Virus record (IMG/VR): IMGVR_UViG_3300046832_001626
Origin: an uncultured virus (IMG/VR IMGVR_UViG_3300046832_001626)
Lineage: Duplodnaviria; Heunggongvirae; Uroviricota; Caudoviricetes
Length of the DNA: 20,000 nt
Reading direction: 5' to 3' (one strand)
Of this stretch, positions 8,103 through 18,428 are shown piece after piece. Each line of letters begins with the position of its first letter. The stretch's first letter is position 1. Both the position numbers and the translations under genes were made by a program. A model generated the notes under the pieces. The model was not told the origin of the DNA. It was given only the letters and a program-made list of their open reading frames with translations, and did no database searches.

Positions 8103-8393
8103 ATGAGCAGCATCACTAATTTCATTCGCAAAATCAATAATATCACAAGTGCAGTTCGCTCAGTAACAGGAACTGTACGTGCTGTTAAAGATCTTAGAAA
8201 TCAGTTTCGTGGTAGAACACCATCAAGTGCATCGCGATCAACGCCGCAGATTCCTGGCACCACTCAGCCATCGTATCAATTTAAACCAATTGGACTTTCG
8301 CAAGTAAATTCCAGGAGTTCTGGTAGAAATGTGAATCCTAGACCTGTGAGACCTACTTCTGCGAAGCCTAAACCAGAACCAAAAATTCGATAA
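8103..8393 (+). CDS. Hypothetical small basic protein (96 aa)
   Basis: Fills the gp19-gp20 gap on the coding strand. Amphipathic N-terminus and a Pro/Ser/Arg-rich tail; only one D and one E. Confidence 0.65.
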   Translation: MSSITNFIRKINNITSAVRSVTGTVRAVKDLRNQFRGRTPSSASRSTPQIPGTTQPSYQFKPIGLSQVNSRSSGRNVNPRPVRPTSAKPKPEPKIR

Positions 8394-10114: not shown

Positions 10115-10315
10115 ATGAATAGCGAATCATTATTAAATGCAATTTTCTCTAGTGATGTGGAAGCAGCCAGCGAAGCACTTAATGGTGCTCTCGCATCAAA
10201 GGTTGCTAACGCATTAGAAGTTAAAAAAGTTGAAATCGCTTCTAATTTAATTTCTGCTCCAACAGAAATGAGTTCAGCAGAAGTAGCAACAGAAACAGTA
10301 GATGCAACAGAATAA
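10115..10315 (+). CDS. Small acidic prohead core protein (gp67-like position)
   Basis: 66 aa, GGAG SD, directly after the portal. The ALASKVANALEVKKVEIA helix resembles small T4-like prohead core proteins. Confidence 0.7.
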   Translation: MNSESLLNAIFSSDVEAASEALNGALASKVANALEVKKVEIASNLISAPTEMSSAEVATETVDATE

Positions 10316-11312
10316 CGAAGAAAATACAGAAACATTAGAAGAAGCTCGTGAAAACACAGAATTAAAAAGAGTAGTTTCACAAAGAGTTTCTTATATTACA
10401 AATGCTCTGAGATTACCTGTCTCAGCAGGCACGAGTTCACGCGCAATTCTGAATTATCTTAAGACAACAAGAAGTAATCCAAAATCATCACAATATGATG
10501 TTCTTAAAAGACTATCAAAGCAGCATCGTGATGCAGTGACAATGGTTGGTGGAGTAGTTCCAATCAGTGCAATTGTGAATGCATCAGACAATCAGATTAA
10601 AAAAATTGTTCGTGATGTTGCAACAACAAGTAAAAAATCAGTAAAAAAATTAAACGAAGAATTATTAAACGAAGAATTTCAACCACCTGCAATGCTTATC
10701 TTAAAGAGACAAGCCATTCGTCAGTTTCCAAATGCACAAAGAGTAGCAATGTATACTGATAACAAATATGGTCTGTCATTTACTGTTCCTTATGATGCAA
10801 TGGGAAGAGGATTCACAAGCGTAAATTATGCTGGCATGCCATCTACTGGCATCGCACCAACATCAGCAAGATTAAACGAAGGTATTGTAAAGCAACAAAA
10901 TAAACAATCAAAAGGAAATTTTTTGAGACAACTTGGTGCACATGCTTATATCAAAGGATTATCAAATAATGACCCTTCAATTAAAAGAGTAGGCAGAGAA
11001 GTAACGCAAAATCCAGATATCTCATCAGAAAAAACTGCAGCATTATATCGCAATTTACCAGACATGAAAACGCCACAATCATTGCGTGATGATCATGCTG
11101 CAATGCATTTACAAGAAGAAGGTGATTATTCTATCCTTACATTTACAACTGGTGAAGAAGTTTATCTTGACCAAAATACAATCAATTCCTTACAAAATGT
11201 TTTTGAATCTTTAAGCCAAGAAAATCAAGATAAGATGGTCGACATGCTTTTAGAAAATGCAGATACATTTAATCGTATTATTCAATTTGTTGAGTTAATT
11301 AAAGATGAGTAA
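10302..11312 (+). CDS. Hypothetical prohead-region protein (336 aa)
   Basis: Long ORF overlapping both neighbours. Contains the PPAMLILKRQAIRQFP...RVAMY...FTVPY block and several L-x-E motifs. Confidence 0.75.
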   Translation: MQQNNEENTETLEEARENTELKRVVSQRVSYITNALRLPVSAGTSSRAILNYLKTTRSNPKSSQYDVLKRLSKQHRDAVTMVGGVVPISAIVNASDNQIKKIVRDVATTSKKSVKKLNEELLNEEFQPPAMLILKRQAIRQFPNAQRVAMYTDNKYGLSFTVPYDAMGRGFTSVNYAGMPSTGIAPTSARLNEGIVKQQNKQSKGNFLRQLGAHAYIKGLSNNDPSIKRVGREVTQNPDISSEKTAALYRNLPDMKTPQSLRDDHAAMHLQEEGDYSILTFTTGEEVYLDQNTINSLQNVFESLSQENQDKMVDMLLENADTFNRIIQFVELIKDE

Positions 11313-12213
11313 CGATATTAACGAAAAATATGAAGATCGTTATGGTTCCGATTATGAGGAAGGGAAAGGCGCAAACAGTCAAAATATCGAAAACAGAAAG
11401 TTTGGAATCAAATCAACAGACACACTCGCTGATAAAATTTTAAAGATGAAAAAGAAAGGCGCATTTGACGAAGAAAAGAAAGCTGAAATGCCAGAAATAA
11501 ATGATGAAGAAGATAATGATGGTGAGGATGAAGAGAATAATAAAGAACTTTTTGATCATGAAGAAGAAAAAAGAATCGCTTTGATGCAATACTTAAATCC
11601 AAGAATTTTAAAATCGCGAGAAAAGAAAGAATACATGTCGAAAGCAAACATTCAAGAAGGCATTGCTGCTAGATTGAACGAGATTGCTTCTGCTAAACTA
11701 GATCTTTATAAGAAAGCAATTGCTATCAACGCAACTGTTGATTTGAGCGAAGCTCGCCGTATGAGCGCAGCAGAGAAGTTGGGTCGTGCATTTGATCTAG
11801 AACAACAAAGAAGTGCATTAAGCCGTCAACGTGGTATTGAACTGCTGAAAACACCAGAATCAATTCGCGCCGCTCATGATGCGCTTCATTCGAAGTCTGC
11901 AACAGAAGAAGAATCCGAAGTTGATCAACTCGATGAAGCAAGTCGCAATCCAAACGTTATGCGTCAGGGTAGAACAAAGATTGTAAAGGCTCGTGTGCGC
12001 GGTGGTAAGGTACAAAGAAGAAAAAGACTTTCTGCTGTGAAAGGTTATACCATTCGTGGTGGTAAATTAAAACGTATGTCAATGGCTGAAAGACTTCGCA
12101 GAAAGCGTGGTCAACGTCGTGGTAAGATTAAAAGAAAGGCAAAGATGGCTCGTGCTCTTATGAAAAGAAAAAGATCAATGAGAAGAAGAGCCTCTCTTGG
12201 ATTAAAGGAATAG
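11305..12213 (+). CDS. Prohead core protein, gp68-like C-terminus with acidic N-terminal extension
   Basis: Immediately upstream of gp21. Extremely Arg/Lys-rich C-terminus (IVKARVRGGKVQRRKRLS...KRKRSMRRRASLGL) following QLDE. Confidence 0.7.
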   Translation: MSNDINEKYEDRYGSDYEEGKGANSQNIENRKFGIKSTDTLADKILKMKKKGAFDEEKKAEMPEINDEEDNDGEDEENNKELFDHEEEKRIALMQYLNPRILKSREKKEYMSKANIQEGIAARLNEIASAKLDLYKKAIAINATVDLSEARRMSAAEKLGRAFDLEQQRSALSRQRGIELLKTPESIRAAHDALHSKSATEEESEVDQLDEASRNPNVMRQGRTKIVKARVRGGKVQRRKRLSAVKGYTIRGGKLKRMSMAERLRRKRGQRRGKIKRKAKMARALMKRKRSMRRRASLGLKE

Positions 12214-12217
12214 AAAC

Positions 12218-12862
12218 ATGAAACTTATTACAGAAACAGTTGAAGAAGTAAAGTATATCACCGAAGAAAATAACGGTGTTAAGACACTTTATATTCAAGG
12301 TCCATTTCTTGTCGCTGAGACAAAGAACCGTAATGGACGTTCATATCCAGTTAGCGTTCTCGAAAACGAAGTAAATCGTTATATGAAGGAATATGTGGAT
12401 AAGAACCGTGCATTCGGCGAACTTGGTCACCCAGAGTCTCCTACGATTAATCTAGAGCGCGTCTCTCATATGATTACTAATATCACAAAGAACGGAAACG
12501 TCTTTGAAGGTAAAGCAAAAGTTCTTGATACGCCTATGGGTAAGATCGCAAAGAATCTTATGGAAGCAGGGGCTACTCTTGGAGTATCTTCACGCGGTAT
12601 GGGTTCTTTGAAGAATGTAAACGGTACAAATATCGTGCAACCAGACTTTTACCTGGCTACAGCAGCCGATATCGTTGCAGATCCTTCTGCTCCTGGTGCT
12701 TTTGTACAGGGAATCATGGAAGGAAAGGAGTGGATTTGGGATAACGGATTAGTACGAGAGCTTGATGTCAATGCATATTATGAAGAAATTAAGACAGCAA
12801 AACAAAAGCAGCTTGATGACATCTCTTTAAAGATCTTCGAGAACTTTTTGTCAAAGTTATAA
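12218..12862 (+). CDS. gp21: Prohead protease gp21
   Basis: MKLITE, KNRNGRSY, catalytic GELGHP and GVSSRGMGS, DIVADPSAP motifs. Confidence 0.97.
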   Translation: MKLITETVEEVKYITEENNGVKTLYIQGPFLVAETKNRNGRSYPVSVLENEVNRYMKEYVDKNRAFGELGHPESPTINLERVSHMITNITKNGNVFEGKAKVLDTPMGKIAKNLMEAGATLGVSSRGMGSLKNVNGTNIVQPDFYLATAADIVADPSAPGAFVQGIMEGKEWIWDNGLVRELDVNAYYEEIKTAKQKQLDDISLKIFENFLSKL

Positions 12863-12866
12863 GTTT

Positions 12867-12874
12867 TATAAATA
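12867..12874 (+). promoter_or_regulatory. T4 late promoter TATAAATA upstream of gp22
   Basis: Exact consensus in the intergenic gap, followed by an AGGAG SD. Confidence 0.8.
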
Positions 12875-12898: not shown

Positions 12899-15800
12899 AT
12901 GGCGCATAAAACATTACATGAATCGGCAGCAGAAATTCTTGCAGCATCAGTTGCAGCTGCTGGCAAAGAACCAGTTCCAATGGCTACAGTTGCGCAGACT
13001 GCTGTTGACCTTGGCGGTGAAATGACTACAGGCGCAGTAACTCCTATTGGATCTGCAAGTTCAAGTCTTGTAAATGTTTCTCCAAAACCAGGTCGTCCAG
13101 GAGTGCCTGCTGAGCCAATGAAAACCGTGTCACCAATGTCTGGTGAGGGTGAAGCTGAAGAAGGCGACGAATCAGAAGAAATGGAATCTGAAGAAAAAGA
13201 CGAAAACGAGTTGATGGAAGAACTAATTCAAGAACACGGCGCAGAAATGGTTCTTGAAAGCCTCATCGCAGAATATGGTGATGAAAATGTATTCCATAGC
13301 ATTATGGAAGAATATACAGCTGAGTATGGTGAAGATCTAGTAAACGAGAAATTTGCAGAAACATTGTCTGAAGAAATTGGCGAAGACAATGTTATCAATC
13401 TAGTTGCCGAAAGCGTTATCGCAGAATTTGGTGAACTACAATTCACAGATGAAGAATTTGCTTCAATTCAAGAGCAATCACAAAACTTCATCACAGAAAT
13501 GCAAACACTTTCTGAGGAAGATTTCGATAACTATGTCGCAAATCTAACTGAAGAAGAATTAATTCAAGCAATTCAACTTTCTTCTCTCAACGAAGAATAT
13601 CTTGTTGAGTTCTTAAAGAAAATTGGTAAGGCACTCAAAAAGGGTGTAAAGGCTGTTGGTAAAGTTGCTGGTAAAGTTCTCAAAAATCCACTATTGAGCA
13701 CAGCACTATCATTTGCACTTCCAGGTGTTGGTGGTATCGCAGCAAAACTTGGTGGAAAACTCGCAAGTACTGCACTTGGTAAAGCTGTTTCAGGCATTGG
13801 TTCAAAGATTGCAGGTAGCGCACTCGGTAAAGCAGTAGGTGCTGGAGTTGGCAAACTCGGTTCAACAGTTCTTGGCAGAGGCGCATTGGCTGCTGGTAAA
13901 GAAGCACTCAAGGGCGGCGTGATGTCAAAATTGCAAGGTGGCAGTTTCAAACAAGGTGCTATCGGTGGTGCTGCTGGATCTATTGGCGGTGGACTCGGCG
14001 GTGCAGTAGCAGCGAGAACTGGCTCAAACACGCTAGGTAATTTGGTTGGCGACGTTGCTTCAACAAAACTTGCTGGCGGCAGATCTGCAGATATTAAAAA
14101 TACAGCATTAGGTTCAGTAAGCGGTGGTCTTAGCGCACTTGCTCAATCAAGAAGACAAGCAGCAGGTGGTGACGAAGGTGGTGCAGAAGATAATGTTGCC
14201 ACAGCAGCAGCGGATGATGAACCAGAAGAAAGAGTTGCTGCAGCTCCAAGACCGCAAACACCTCCAGCTGGAGCACAAAGATTACTTGCATTGCGCAACA
14301 GATTTGGTGCAGCCCGTAGTGTTGCCGAATCAGTAAAACAAAATGATTTTAATGTTCTTCTAGAAGAAATTGTCAATCAAACAAATCAAAACATTGAACA
14401 GCTTGATGATGATTCCTATGAAAACATTGTCAATGAATCAGATGCATTTGTTTCTGCTATTAATGAGTTGTCAGATGAAGAACTTGATAACTATTTCTCA
14501 GATTTAAATGAAGAACAACTAGTTTATGCTGTTTCTTTAATGAGTCTTGCAGAAGCAAGAACAGCACCTGCTCAAGCAAAACCAAGTGCTTGGAGCAAAC
14601 TCAAGAGCAGCAAACTCGCTAGAGCAGTACCCGTTCTTGGAACAGTTCTCGGCGCAGGTTATGCTGCCGATAGACTTCGTGCTGGAGATTATGTTGGCGC
14701 TGGATTAGGTGCAGCAAGTATGTTACCTGGTGCTGGATTAGCAGCTGTTGGCGCTGACATTGCCAGAGATTATATTCCTGGCATAAAATCAACACTTGGA
14801 TCAGAAGGTTCATTGCAGCAAGCAGCCAGCAAATCAAAAGTTGGTAAAGCAATTTCAAAGGCTACAGATCCAGTAGCACGTGTTGCATGGGATCCAGCTG
14901 CGGCAGCAATCGGCAAAGCACTATACAACGACAAAGGCGAAGCAAGATTAGCAAATGCCGCAGGGGCTGTACGTGATACCGCTTCAGCAGCTGCTAGAAA
15001 CGTCGCTGGAGCTGCTAGAAACGTTGCTGGTGGTGCAGCAAGAAGAGTTGCTTCTCTAGCATCTAATATGGTTCCAGCAGCAAGAGCTGCAACACCAGCT
15101 GCAAAACCTGCTGCTAAACCTGCAGCAAAGTCTGCTGCTAACCCAAAACAACAAGGTTCTGTTGGAGCAAATCTTGCATCATCAAGCGGTGGAATGTTTG
15201 CATCAAAATCAGATCGACTCAATCAATCAAAAGTTGATTCAGTTCTGGGTAAAGGTAAATTTAAAGCAGGTTCTGCAGAAGCAAATCTTGCATTACAACG
15301 TCACTTCAATAAAAAAGGCACAATGGGTGAATCAATGGAAATTGAACAAACAAACGAAGAAGAGTCACTACTTGAGCAAAATGCTCTTGAGTTTATCGAT
15401 CATCTTTCAACTCTTTCAGAGGAAGAAGCTGCAATCATCGTTGATCAATTATCAGATGAAGAAGCTGAGTACATTGATTCATTGATGGAAAGCAGATTAA
15501 ATCTATTAAGAGGCGGACGAGGTGCACGAGGTGCAGGCGGTAGAGGTAGAACACCAGCTGCCAGACCAGCTGCCAGACCAGCTGCCAGACCAGCTGGTGG
15601 AATCGGTAAAGGTAAAGCCGCTGCAGCAACTGCCGCTGGCGTTGCTGCTGGTTACGGCGCATCTAAAGCAGTAGATGCATTAACAGGTTCTAATGCTCCA
15701 GCAAAACCAGATAAACCAGTTAAACCATCTAAACCAGCTGCAATGAGCGATGAGCAAAAGTATGGTAAGATCGGCGCTGAGATTCGTAAATTGGATCCAG

Positions 15801-17065
15801 AAGCATATAAGAATAGACCAAAATCTGCACAAGGAAATATGGATCTTTTGAATCAACTAAGAGCCAAGAAAGCTGCTCCAGCAGCTGCAGCTCCAGCAGT
15901 TGAACCTGCTCAAGAACCAGCAGCACCTGAGCAAGCAGAAAACGATTACGGTAAATCTATGCTTGATCAACTTGATAAAGATGTTCAAGATATCCAATCA
16001 CAACAACCAGCAAAACCAGCACAAGCTGGTAAGGGTTTGATGAGAACCGCAACTGGTGAAAAGACACGTTTAAGAAAAGCAATTCCAAATGAACTTGCAG
16101 GTGTTGCAAATAAATTAGGAAATTTATTCAAGGCAAAAGAACTTGGCTGGAAACCAGGGACTGATCGCTCTGGAAAACCAAAAAATGAGGGACAGACAAT
16201 GTCAGAAGAACATGAAGAACAATATGAAATGATTGATGATTTAAATGACGGTTTGACTGATGAGCAAATTCAAGAACAAAGAAAGAACTCAATCAAAGAA
16301 ACAGTCAATCAATATAAAGGTAATATGAGAGAAGACGTTGATGCTCTATTCAACGGTGAATCACTCTCAGAAGATTTCCGTGTCAAAGCAACTTTGATCT
16401 TTGAATCAGCTGTAACATCACGTGTTGAAGCAATTCTAGAGCAAGTAATGGCTGACAACGAAGAAGTTCTTGCCAATGCATATGAAGATATGAAGGGCGA
16501 ACTAACTGAACAAGTTGATGAATATCTCAACTATGTTGTCGATCAGTGGATGGCACAAAATCAAGTTGCTATCGAAACAGGTTTACGTTCAGAACTCGCT
16601 GAAGACTTCATCTCTGGTCTACGCGCTCTATTCCAAGAACATTACATCGAAATTCCTGAAGAGAAGGTTGATGTTGCAGAAACACTTGCAACAGAACTTG
16701 CAGATCTAAGCACTCAAGCACAAGAATATATTGGGGCACAAGAACTCGCAATTGCCGATCTTCAAGAAGAACTTAACACTGTTAAGAAAGAAAAAGCAAT
16801 TAATAATTTCTGCGAAGGACTTACACTAGTTCAAGCAGAAAAAATGAAATCACTCGCAGAGAGTGTGGAGTTCACCGCAGAAGGTGATTTTGAAGAAAAA
16901 CTCGCTGTACTACGCGAGAACTACTTCCCAACTAAAGTACAAGTGAGAAGTGAGGTAAAGGAAATTCAGCAAGCAATGCTTAATGAAGAACCTGAAGTAG
17001 AACAAACAAACTCTGTCATGGCTCGTTATGTTAAATCAATCTCTAAAACGGCTCCAAAAGCCTAA
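12899..17065 (+). CDS. gp22: Prohead core scaffold gp22, greatly expanded (1388 aa) by an internal modular insertion
   Basis: Lies between gp21 and gp23. The C-terminal part from 16325 is canonical gp22 (EDVDALFNGESLSEDFRVKATLIFESAV, VDEYLNYVVDQWM, GLRSELAEDFISGLRALFQEHYIEIPEEKVDV, LRENYF, MARYV). One uninterrupted frame. Confidence 0.92.
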   Translation: MAHKTLHESAAEILAASVAAAGKEPVPMATVAQTAVDLGGEMTTGAVTPIGSASSSLVNVSPKPGRPGVPAEPMKTVSPMSGEGEAEEGDESEEMESEEKDENELMEELIQEHGAEMVLESLIAEYGDENVFHSIMEEYTAEYGEDLVNEKFAETLSEEIGEDNVINLVAESVIAEFGELQFTDEEFASIQEQSQNFITEMQTLSEEDFDNYVANLTEEELIQAIQLSSLNEEYLVEFLKKIGKALKKGVKAVGKVAGKVLKNPLLSTALSFALPGVGGIAAKLGGKLASTALGKAVSGIGSKIAGSALGKAVGAGVGKLGSTVLGRGALAAGKEALKGGVMSKLQGGSFKQGAIGGAAGSIGGGLGGAVAARTGSNTLGNLVGDVASTKLAGGRSADIKNTALGSVSGGLSALAQSRRQAAGGDEGGAEDNVATAAADDEPEERVAAAPRPQTPPAGAQRLLALRNRFGAARSVAESVKQNDFNVLLEEIVNQTNQNIEQLDDDSYENIVNESDAFVSAINELSDEELDNYFSDLNEEQLVYAVSLMSLAEARTAPAQAKPSAWSKLKSSKLARAVPVLGTVLGAGYAADRLRAGDYVGAGLGAASMLPGAGLAAVGADIARDYIPGIKSTLGSEGSLQQAASKSKVGKAISKATDPVARVAWDPAAAAIGKALYNDKGEARLANAAGAVRDTASAAARNVAGAARNVAGGAARRVASLASNMVPAARAATPAAKPAAKPAAKSAANPKQQGSVGANLASSSGGMFASKSDRLNQSKVDSVLGKGKFKAGSAEANLALQRHFNKKGTMGESMEIEQTNEEESLLEQNALEFIDHLSTLSEEEAAIIVDQLSDEEAEYIDSLMESRLNLLRGGRGARGAGGRGRTPAARPAARPAARPAGGIGKGKAAAATAAGVAAGYGASKAVDALTGSNAPAKPDKPVKPSKPAAMSDEQKYGKIGAEIRKLDPEAYKNRPKSAQGNMDLLNQLRAKKAAPAAAAPAVEPAQEPAAPEQAENDYGKSMLDQLDKDVQDIQSQQPAKPAQAGKGLMRTATGEKTRLRKAIPNELAGVANKLGNLFKAKELGWKPGTDRSGKPKNEGQTMSEEHEEQYEMIDDLNDGLTDEQIQEQRKNSIKETVNQYKGNMREDVDALFNGESLSEDFRVKATLIFESAVTSRVEAILEQVMADNEEVLANAYEDMKGELTEQVDEYLNYVVDQWMAQNQVAIETGLRSELAEDFISGLRALFQEHYIEIPEEKVDVAETLATELADLSTQAQEYIGAQELAIADLQEELNTVKKEKAINNFCEGLTLVQAEKMKSLAESVEFTAEGDFEEKLAVLRENYFPTKVQVRSEVKEIQQAMLNEEPEVEQTNSVMARYVKSISKTAPKA
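14990..15031 (+). repeat. 21-nt tandem repeat x2 (AARNVAG)
   Basis: gctgctagaaacgtcgctgga / gctgctagaaacgttgctggt. Confidence 0.85.
15554..15596 (+). repeat. Perfect 12-nt tandem repeat, about 3.5 copies (PAAR peptide repeat)
   Basis: ccagctgccaga x3 followed by ccagctg. Confidence 0.9.
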
Positions 17066-17090: not shown

Positions 17091-18428
17091 ATGTATATTA
17101 ACGAAACATATGCAAAGAAGTGGGCACCAGTTCTTGATCACCCAGAACTCCCAGGAATCAGCGACCCTTACAAGCGCGCAGTTACTGCACTCGTTCTAGA
17201 AAATCAAGAGCGTGCCCTACAAGAAGAATCACGTTCAATGCAAAACCTATGGGAAGCATCACCAGCTAATGCCATGGGAACAGCAGGAATCAGTGGTCTT
17301 TCAGGCGCAGCAAACTCTGGCGTTACAGGCTTCGATCCAGTTCTAATCGGACTCGTTCGTCGTTCTATGCCAAACCTAATGGCTTATGACATCTGCGGCG
17401 TTCAGCCAATGACAGGTCCAACAGGTTTGATCTTCGCAATGCGATCAGTGTTCGCAAGTGCATCTGCTCGCGCTGGTGAAGCACTATTCCAGGAAGCAAA
17501 CACTCACTCTGGTAATGGTACAGTGACTGCATTCAGCACAGCTGTCAACCCAGGTAATGCAAACAGCTCAATCTACGGTCTTGCAAACACAGGTCATGGC
17601 TTCACAACAGCCTATGCCGAAGATGCAACACTCGCATATATGGGCTTCCAGATCGATCGCGTTGCTGTTACAGCCAATTCACGTGGCTTGCAAGCATCAT
17701 ACACGCTCGAACTTGCACAAGACCTCAAGGCAGTTCACGGTCTCGACGCAGAAACAGAATTGACAAATATCTTGTCAACTGAAATTCTTGCTGAAATCAA
17801 CCGCGAAGTTGTTCGTACAATCTATGCAACAGCAAACGTCGGTGTAACTGGCGTAACGGCAAATGTTGTTAACCTTTCAAGCTCCGTAATCGGAGATGCA
17901 GGTGGCACATCTGGTCGTTGGCAGGTTGAGAAGTACAAGTCACTTCTATTCCGTATCGAACAAGCTGCAAACAAGATCGCAAAAGACACACGTCGCGGTA
18001 AGGGTAACATGATCATCGTTTCAACCGATGTTGCATCAGCTCTTGCAATGACAGGTCTTCTCGATTACAACTCAGCACTAACAAACAATACAAATCTCGT
18101 TGTAGACGATACAGGCAACACATTCGCTGGTGTGCTCTTCGGACGCATCAAAGTCTATGTTGACCCATATTCTGTCGCTGGCGCAGATTATGTTGTTGTT
18201 GGTTATAAGGGTGTAACACCTTATGACGCTGGCTTGTTCTACTGCCCATACGTCCCACTACAGATGGTACGTGCAGTTGATCCAACAACTTACCAGCCAA
18301 AGGTCGGCTTCAAGACACGTTATGGTCTCGTTGCAAACCCATTCGCAACAGCAGCTGGTCTTGGTGCTCTAACAGACGGTACAAACGTATACTACCGTAA
18401 GTTCCAAGTGTTGAATATCAACCAGTAA
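17091..18428 (+). CDS. gp23: Major capsid protein gp23
   Basis: KWAPVLDH, LENQE, DPVLIGLVRR, ICGVQPMTGPTGLIFAMR, ELAQDLKAVHGLDAE, YCPYVPL and GFKTRYG motifs. Probable maturation site LWE|A. Confidence 0.98.
   Translation: MYINETYAKKWAPVLDHPELPGISDPYKRAVTALVLENQERALQEESRSMQNLWEASPANAMGTAGISGLSGAANSGVTGFDPVLIGLVRRSMPNLMAYDICGVQPMTGPTGLIFAMRSVFASASARAGEALFQEANTHSGNGTVTAFSTAVNPGNANSSIYGLANTGHGFTTAYAEDATLAYMGFQIDRVAVTANSRGLQASYTLELAQDLKAVHGLDAETELTNILSTEILAEINREVVRTIYATANVGVTGVTANVVNLSSSVIGDAGGTSGRWQVEKYKSLLFRIEQAANKIAKDTRRGKGNMIIVSTDVASALAMTGLLDYNSALTNNTNLVVDDTGNTFAGVLFGRIKVYVDPYSVAGADYVVVGYKGVTPYDAGLFYCPYVPLQMVRAVDPTTYQPKVGFKTRYGLVANPFATAAGLGALTDGTNVYYRKFQVLNINQ

Follow-up and report, generated by a model that had tools for sequence, protein, structure and literature searches.

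A giant gp22 scaffold of an uncultured T4-like phage as a putative protease-processed carrier of internal head proteins

The scaffold protein gp22 of phage T4 is 269 amino acids (aa) long, and scaffolds are usually taught as disposable. According to PMC9026906, the T4 protease gp21 cuts after L/I-X-E, and the T4 head retains only a 2.5-kDa fragment of gp22 but all of the internal proteins (IPs). Here we describe a gp22 of 1388 aa that is encoded on a stretch of 20,000 nucleotides (the whole of which we call the window) of an uncultured virus, IMG/VR record IMGVR_UViG_3300046832_001626. The leader and the C-terminal domain of this protein are those of a gp22, and between them this protein and its giant homologs contain two or three units, each consisting of an acidic spacer and a basic segment, the cargo. 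We propose, with a probability of about 0.7, that precursors of internal proteins have been fused into the linker of the scaffold, and that they would be co-assembled with it, excised by gp21 and retained as basic proteins of 24-27 kDa. An earlier note on this DNA had already interpreted the segments as fused cargos; this view is partly supported by sequence statistics, namely by the motifs at the junctions, the avoidance of L/I-x-E in the interior, the variable number and content of the cargos, and the presence of the modules in proteins that are not scaffolds.

Architecture of the giant gp22

The window covers the neck-to-head region of a T4-like phage, in which the portal, gp21, gp22 and gp23 were assigned by Pfam and PHROG, while the names gp13-gp19 are presumed from gene order. 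The giant gp22 gene (12899..17065; + strand, as are all parts of the gene and both neighbours) is an open reading frame (ORF) for a protein of 145.6 kDa, and it is intact in contig L001. It sits in the head operon between the genes for gp21 (12218..12862; 214 aa; PF03420, Peptidase_S77, E 3e-34), the presumed cutter, and for the major capsid protein gp23 (17091..18428; PF07068). The gp21 matches the T4 gp21 structure 5jbl in a phmmer search (E 6e-21), with His71, Ser124 and Asp151 aligned, residues that we take to be the catalytic triad. The alternation of acidic segments with basic Gly/Ala/Lys segments along the 1388 aa, which had been noticed before, was confirmed by sliding windows. At its C-terminal end the protein carries the canonical T4-like scaffold domain (aa 1143-1380; 16325..17038; T4_CASP, PF25623, E 9e-62; phrog_237), which scores 209 bits against a cut-off of 27 and, together with the position of the gene, places the protein in the T4-like gp22 family. 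The canonical gp22 C-terminus claimed by the earlier note therefore stands; the scaffold-like N-terminus that it also described is a leader of about 75 aa (aa 1-75; 12899..13123) that is common to the ~400-aa gp22s of this phage group and falls outside the T4_CASP Pfam model.

The leader is followed by an acidic block with the first spacer repeat (13124..13609; repeat at 13466-13585), which has a net charge of -49, contains many L/I-x-E sites, is helical in the AlphaFold model and ends in LVE. Cargo 1 (aa 238-489; 13610..14365; 24 kDa, isoelectric point (pI) 10.5) is, like the other two cargos, bounded by L/I-x-E sites. It starts with a cationic amphipathic helix (13610-13663), continues with a hydrophobic PG hairpin and Gly-rich repeats, and also holds an acidic patch and an Arg-rich tail; its first 18 residues have the highest helical hydrophobic moment of the protein (0.77), a value reached in 0 of 5000 shuffles. 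Spacer 2 (14366..14554; repeat at 14426-14545), recognised, like spacer 3, by the repeat profile and the motif, ends in LAE and is followed by cargo 2 (aa 553-826; 14555..15376; 27 kDa, pI 10.2), which has in common with the homolog P0001 a hydrophobic, Gly-rich hairpin (14615-14773) as well as a module of 43 aa (15179-15307). Spacer repeat 3 (15371..15490) ends in LME, and cargo 3 (aa 865-1126; 15491..16276; 27 kDa, pI 9.5) comprises an Arg/Gly-rich start, a mobile three-helix module, M4 (15734-15874), and a basic module (16019-16132).

The three junctions that had been predicted, LVE/F, LAE/A and LME/S, are found exactly at 13610, 14555 and 15491. The starts of the cargos as first drawn were thus correct, but their ends were not, since the next L/I-x-E sites make the released products longer. 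The spacers are acidic as described, but they are more than linkers: they are homologous helical repeats of about 40 aa, located at aa 190-229, 510-549 and 825-864. All three segments outlined in the earlier note are free of internal L/I-x-E, and the poverty in Glu that it attributed to them applies to cargo 1 (1 Glu in 187 aa) and cargo 2 (4 in 259), but only moderately to cargo 3 (11 in 233). The AlphaFold model of aa 98-489 has a mean predicted local distance difference test (pLDDT) score of 48, too low for assessing how the basic helix packs against the spacer, and a Foldseek search with it gave no match at E<=0.001.

The 1388-aa ORF is genuine and not an artefact of assembly. Six IMG/VR contigs align gap-free to the giant gp22 at 99.5-99.95%, L001 covering the entire gene, and 23 DNA runs labelled lake water contain 0.88-0.99 of the words of the sequence. 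Six of these runs were flagged as possible sources; in three unflagged ones, 30, 29 and 30 of 30 bins were covered, with zero joints or indels, so that the read mapping proposed earlier as a check for misassembly found the gene intact. Public contigs do break at a 12-bp tandem repeat (15553-15594, the PAAR units of cargo 3), as would suit a chimera or a collapsed repeat, but the uninterrupted gene in L001, the clean DNA runs and the 15 divergent full-size homologs presented below leave a negligible chance for such an origin of the giant gp22. In the single RNA run, 0.06 of the words and 7 of 30 bins were found, and that run gave no evidence of expression.

Candidate cleavage sites at the junctions and within the cargos

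The distribution of candidate cleavage sites was analysed in 21 of 28 giants, after seven near-identical or partial sequences had been dropped. The junction was defined as the last [LIVM]-x-E near the end of each spacer, and the cargo cores were trimmed 45 aa before the next acidic block. L/I-x-E is present at all 44 spacer/cargo junctions. The cargo cores, which amount to 11,242 aa with 362 Glu, contain only 4 L/I-x-E where 35 are expected, and 40 of the 44 cores have none, whereas the acidic blocks contain 287 against an expectation of 148. In a subset of 10 proteins a single L/I-x-E was counted against 12.6 in local shuffles, and 0 of 2000 shuffles were as low. The avoidance is specific for one position: of 227 unique contexts, 3 have Leu or Ile two residues ahead of the Glu, whereas the 13 other offsets average 16.5 (p 4e-5), and no such gap is seen for Asp (24 of 395, mean 29), Gln, Asn or Lys. 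The sparing that the earlier note ascribed to poverty in Glu would be due less to this poverty as such than to the fact that Leu and Ile are avoided two residues before the Glu residues that remain. For the gp22 of the window this leaves three stretches of 252-274 aa without L/I-x-E, and the protein is predicted not to be wholly shredded by gp21.

The specificity assumed for the protease can also be gauged from the gp23 leaders. Among 46 distinct ones, 41 have L-x-E and one has M-x-E by pattern, and the four unmatched ones proved on inspection to have L-W-E, which brings the total with L-x-E to 45. The gp23 leader of the window ends in L-W-E (17247-17255). This motif is an independent sign of the specificity of the protease.

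These counts also bear on the possibility that the inserts are disposable bulk, which would enlarge or charge-balance the prohead core, thereby affecting the size or shape of the head, and would then be cut at non-L/I sites or removed. There is a precedent in T4, where gp67 and gp68 likely affect head size and are destroyed together with gp22 (PMC9026906); in the giant loci examined, the gp68-like protein, too, is larger than usual (285-478 aa), and much of the cargo is of low complexity, with no confident structure in the model. However, filler should retain or even gain cut sites, whereas the cargos specifically lose L/I-x-E; the conservation of cargo 1, its well-defined amphipathic start, and the folded or functional modules found within the cargos (M4, with a pLDDT of 87.6, and LysM) also speak against filler. 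We therefore consider disposable bulk unlikely.

The giant lineage and the relatives of its cargo modules

A search limited to proteins of 763-2429 aa, in which 8000 candidates were scored, yielded 15 giant homologs (948-1383 aa), all of which have T4_CASP. When shorter proteins were searched with the C-terminal domain, 1321 matches were obtained; among the best 120, the median length of the Met-initiated proteins is 406 aa (10-90%: 365-466). In a tree of the C-terminal domain (a 44-row subset, midpoint root) the giants (948-1388 aa) together with five short or partial sequences form one branch with a support of 100/99. In the first tree, the giant label took five changes and these five sequences, located inside the clade, were then unlabelled; it should be noted that the single origin is a post hoc result, since they were relabelled after that tree. 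The members of the sister group (P0019-P0021) have one spacer each and no more than one small cassette.

With a profile derived from the three spacers of the window, 33 copies are detected: every one of the 15 homologs has two, and the window has its three. In P0001 a further, diverged spacer was placed by eye. The number of cargos is accordingly three in the window and P0001 and two elsewhere. P0136, in which 14 stretches match the spacer profile, is an insect allergen repeat and was rejected as a false positive. Cargo 1 is conserved in the 28 distinct giants, with the helix profile matching 25 and the Gly repeat present in 28 of 28; the exceptions are L020 and L024, which have an insertion before a diverged helix, and the truncated L023. 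The region after the last spacer, on the other hand, is a hypervariable mosaic of recurring modules, and in P0014 the last cargo includes a LysM domain (E 8e-6). This domain is the only addition to T4_CASP in the 16 proteins scanned with Pfam, T4_CASP being the sole domain in the other 15, and no MuF or enzymatic effector domain was detected. The comparison of related gp22s that the earlier note had suggested shows that the number and content of the cargos vary while the spacers persist.

A related feature is seen on a smaller scale in ordinary gp22s. In a set of 125 distinct full-length short gp22s, 27 Glu-poor cassettes, 38-120 aa long, are distributed over 26 proteins. Many of these cassettes are near-copies; 23 of them begin at [LIV]-x-E, and L/I-x-E is absent from all 27, where 7.8 would be expected. 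The cassettes gave no blastp match in the non-gp22 ORFs of the loci examined. One cassette of 117 aa is 95% identical between P0017, which belongs to the giant lineage, and P0020 of the sister lineage, and in P0017 it lies directly behind the Met equivalent to the candidate internal start described below. We regard it as very unlikely that the cassettes are nearly neutral mobile sequence of no benefit, which recombination with genes for internal proteins would have brought into a linker that tolerates it. Although the mosaic, hypervariable last cargo, the occurrence of identical small cassettes in gp22s of separate branches, and the fact that most relatives do without (99 of 125 have none) would fit such neutrality, about 1000 extra residues on an abundant protein have been kept throughout the lineage and always in frame, and the junction motifs are conserved while internal sites have been purged.

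Relatives of the cargo modules were also found outside gp22. A profile of spacer 1 plus the helix, compared with 1.84 billion representatives, gave 45 matches, namely three giants, one false positive, P0137 and 40 others. Of these 40, 12 have the cargo-1 helix as their natural N-terminus; in the rest it is internal, and in many of them it comes after a leader of the Leu-Glu-Glu type, the proteins having weak PHROG matches of the tape-measure type. P0137, P0194 and P0195 contain cargo modules in a different order and have no scaffold domain, and the first two of them also have an acidic block, a spacer and L-V-E before cargo 1. A C-terminal module of about 35 aa from P0137 and P0194 occurs in at least 80 viral loci (L163-L245), inside Glu-punctuated proteins that are often encoded close to the genes for terminase, portal and head protease. 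A protein of cyanophage S-WAM2, encoded after the baseplate hub gene, matches the hairpin of cargo 2 (34.6 bits, compared with 5.3 for the best of 500 shuffles).

M4, modelled as three helices (pLDDT 87.6) without a significant PDB or BFVD match, was found in 77 viral loci: in 12 giant gp22s, in four Glu-punctuated proteins of about 1650 aa (one truncated) and in 61 short basic proteins of unrelated phages, so that 65 of the loci are not gp22. In the 8 loci listed for the short proteins, these are encoded a few genes behind a major capsid gene. The long proteins (1647-1676 aa in L090 (3092-8035), L091 and L129) consist of repeated L/V/I-x-E-punctuated modules, including M4, behind a start that we take to resemble a capsid targeting sequence (CTS); they are candidates for a stand-alone internal polyprotein of a large phage. 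In unrelated phages, clusters of small, very basic, x-x-G-G-rich proteins are encoded 3' of the gene for the major capsid protein (L093-L154, e.g., L146 1944-2777), and M4 often begins right after the x-x-G-G motif, which hints at a different protease code. The idea that M3 and M4 resemble a DUF3597-like wall-binding domain was discarded, as Pfam gave no support for it (0 of 23 M4 members, and none for cargo 2).

That M4 is also present in such small, very basic proteins, encoded 3' of the major capsid gene in unrelated phages, would, together with the pI values of the cargos (9.5-10.5) and their Lys/Arg-rich and Ala/Pro-rich tracts, also suit cargos that remain in the head for good after their excision, acting as basic core proteins that neutralise or organise the DNA. 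This alternative coincides with our proposal up to the release of the cargos, ejection being the sole difference, and we hold it to be improbable, as the amphipathic helix, the hydrophobic hairpins, including the one shared with S-WAM2, and the LysM domain point to the host envelope instead.

A tblastn search with cargo 1 against cultured phages returned nothing; with aa 236-420 and with aa 755-810, all clusters obtained from the ESM Atlas were unnamed and below 0.9; and matches to the full-length protein covered only its C-terminal 17-19% among the 40 of 2310 records listed. The earlier note had likened the cargos to the internal proteins IPI-III and Alt of T4; homology to them is not borne out, as no Pfam or PHROG match of this kind was obtained for any of the three cargos.

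Some further genes of the window and of related loci deserve mention. The gp68-like core gene (11305-12213) encodes 302 aa, within the enlarged range given above for giant loci, compared with 97-115 aa for its counterpart in the short-gp22 loci L030, L031, L032, L048 and L060. The gp68-like protein and the product of the preceding ORF (10302-11312; 336 aa) have six L/I-x-E sites each, and both may therefore carry cargo. Two proteins with CTS-like starts are encoded in other loci: one of 261 aa with an Alt-like ADP-ribosyltransferase match, between gp16 and gp17 of a related phage (L045 1060-1845), and one of 255 aa with a Glu site, a glycine-zipper segment and a weak PHROG match, between the gp68-like gene and gp21 (L031 8542-9309). 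Between gp19 and gp20 the window contains an ORF (8103-8393) for a basic, nearly Glu-free protein of 96 aa, which is also present in L009, L013 and L017 and has no Pfam or PHROG match, and a glycosyltransferase family 2 gene (292-1047) is located immediately 5' of the neck genes. Just 5' of gp22 there is a match to the motif TATAAATA (12867..12874; + strand), which presumably is a T4-type late promoter; the window has two such matches against 0.59 expected, and at least two were seen in 22 of 200 shuffles.

Proposed cargo route and comparison with described systems

The giant gene may give rise to a second product, which the earlier note had overlooked. A candidate ribosome-binding site with an in-frame ATG (16187..16201; + strand; Met1101) would start a short scaffold of 288 aa. 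In 12 of 12 distinct giant loci an in-frame ATG follows GAGG(A/G) by 7 bases shortly upstream of the scaffold domain, and this site is kept across four different peptide contexts, with a predicted short form of 285-345 aa (one locus is truncated). Its scores (-5.9 to -6.2) resemble those of real starts (-5.6 to -7.4 for 7 of 10 window genes) and are equalled by about 5% of other internal Met codons; a comparable site within 90 aa before the domain exists in only 3 of 40 short-gp22 loci. Folding of the region was uninformative. We lean slightly towards the view that this short form supplies plain scaffold and limits the copy number of the cargo. A short form would ease the load, as at the T4 copy number of gp22, which is 576, the same number of copies of the long form would amount to 84 MDa and leave 45 MDa of cargo.

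On the basis of these features, the following route can be envisaged. The gp22 domain would build the long protein into the prohead core, in which the acidic spacers may balance the basic cargos and the short form would serve as plain scaffold that limits the dose. Subsequently, gp21 would cut after L/I-x-E, shredding the leader, the spacers and the scaffold domain and freeing three basic proteins of 24-27 kDa; this excision step is deduced from the motif statistics and the T4 precedent. The freed cargos would be retained, having no L/I-x-E site and being too large to exit like small peptides, and would stay with the packaged DNA. Given the precedents of T4 and SPN3US, we put it at even odds that they are then ejected alongside the DNA. 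Cargo 1 would gain a free amphipathic N-terminal helix upon the cut and, judging from this N-terminus and from the analogy with T7 gp14, we tentatively suggest that it acts on the host membrane, with the odds somewhat against it. The later cargos would constitute a swappable slot for mobile modules. Taken to its full extent, the proposal would be that a freshwater T4-like lineage has turned its scaffold into a programmable cargo polyprotein: the long form would ferry two or three proteins of about 25 kDa, the short form would set the dose, gp21 would unmask a cargo-1 helix that is held inactive behind its acidic spacer and acts on the membrane after ejection, the last slot would swap modules with internal proteins from phages outside the lineage that are unrelated to it, and about a fifth of the ordinary gp22s would, with their small cassettes, have a miniature version of the same system. 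This wider picture is speculative, and we think it less likely than not.

Several points weigh against the fused-cargo proposal. The sequences are related, and the p-values consequently overstate independence; the junction rule, by taking the last [LIVM]-x-E, favours finding a site, and the middle spacer of P0001 was identified by eye. L/I-x-E is present in 4 of the 44 cargo cores, and gp21 may accept other residues at position P3, where 5 Val and 7 Met are found among the 362 Glu of the cargos. No cargo matches a protein of known function, the results from Pfam, PHROG, ESM Atlas and Foldseek being blank or weak. No genomic context was obtained for P0137, P0194 or P0195, searches with the first two giving only the short C-terminal motif. 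As to the internal start, columns that are all GAG are also seen at 4 of the 34 conserved Glu positions of the scaffold domain, so that conservation of the codon alone is not exceptional.

If the proposal is correct, T4-like phages have a second route for loading the head beside the CTS. This route could operate at the copy number of a scaffold; 576 times 79 kDa of cargo would be about 45 MDa, similar to the mass of ejected proteins in giant phages. The avoidance of L/I-x-E would provide a sequence rule that predicts which parts of the head proteins of uncultured phages survive maturation, and a large class of "hypothetical" low-complexity inserts, among them a widespread module with an amphipathic helix, could be tested as injected proteins. 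Our literature search, which extended to few subscription journals, yielded no description of a gp22 that bears cargo, and the passages considered from PMC6630229, PMC10892097 and PMC9024508 describe no such protein.

The comparison with known systems brings out both similarities and differences. In fusions of effectors to MuF, portal or head protease proteins and in polyvalent proteins (PMC9503650), passengers likewise enter the head by fusion to a structural protein and their content is variable, but gp22 is not among the carriers named there, and those passengers can be recognised as enzymes. Here, in contrast, they are mostly of a low-complexity basic or membrane type and are separated by a repeated spacer with protease sites. 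Nested genes for a protease and a scaffold, as in lambda (C/Nu3) and herpesvirus (UL26/UL26.5), would resemble the locus in that one gene gives a long fusion and, via an in-frame internal start, a short scaffold. The N-terminal partner, however, is a protease in those systems and would be cargo in the giant gp22, whose internal start is only predicted.

The ejection proteins of the giant phages SPN3US and phiKZ (PMC7411985, PMC10052503, PMC5694885) have long propeptides with several Glu-specific sites, and a large mass of internal protein (over 40 MDa in SPN3US) is released by a gp21-like protease; as described there, these phages differ in having one mature product per gene behind an N-terminal propeptide, an A/S-x-E code and no fusion to gp22. 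A functional analogy for cargo 1 is offered by podophage ejection proteins of the T7 gp14 type (PMC8954989), internal proteins of about 200-250 aa with hydrophobic, membrane-inserting helices, although no sequence homology was found and T4-like phages, having a contractile tail, do not depend on an ejected tunnel in the same manner. There is also a likeness to the T4 prohead core (PMC9026906, PMC9958956), with which the locus shares the order gp20-67-68-21-22-23, a homologous protease and scaffold domain, the L/I-x-E code, and the scheme of removable acidic and retained mature parts. In T4, the retained proteins (IPI-III and Alt) are products of separate genes targeted by a 10-aa CTS, and gp22 leaves its 2.5-kDa fragment, whereas here the retained candidates lie inside gp22, would be released by cuts on both sides and are unrelated to IPI-III and Alt, stand-alone versions being found in other proteins. 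By domain and position the giant protein is a member of the gp22 family, and it probably works like the internal-protein system of T4 without the separate genes and the CTS of that system.

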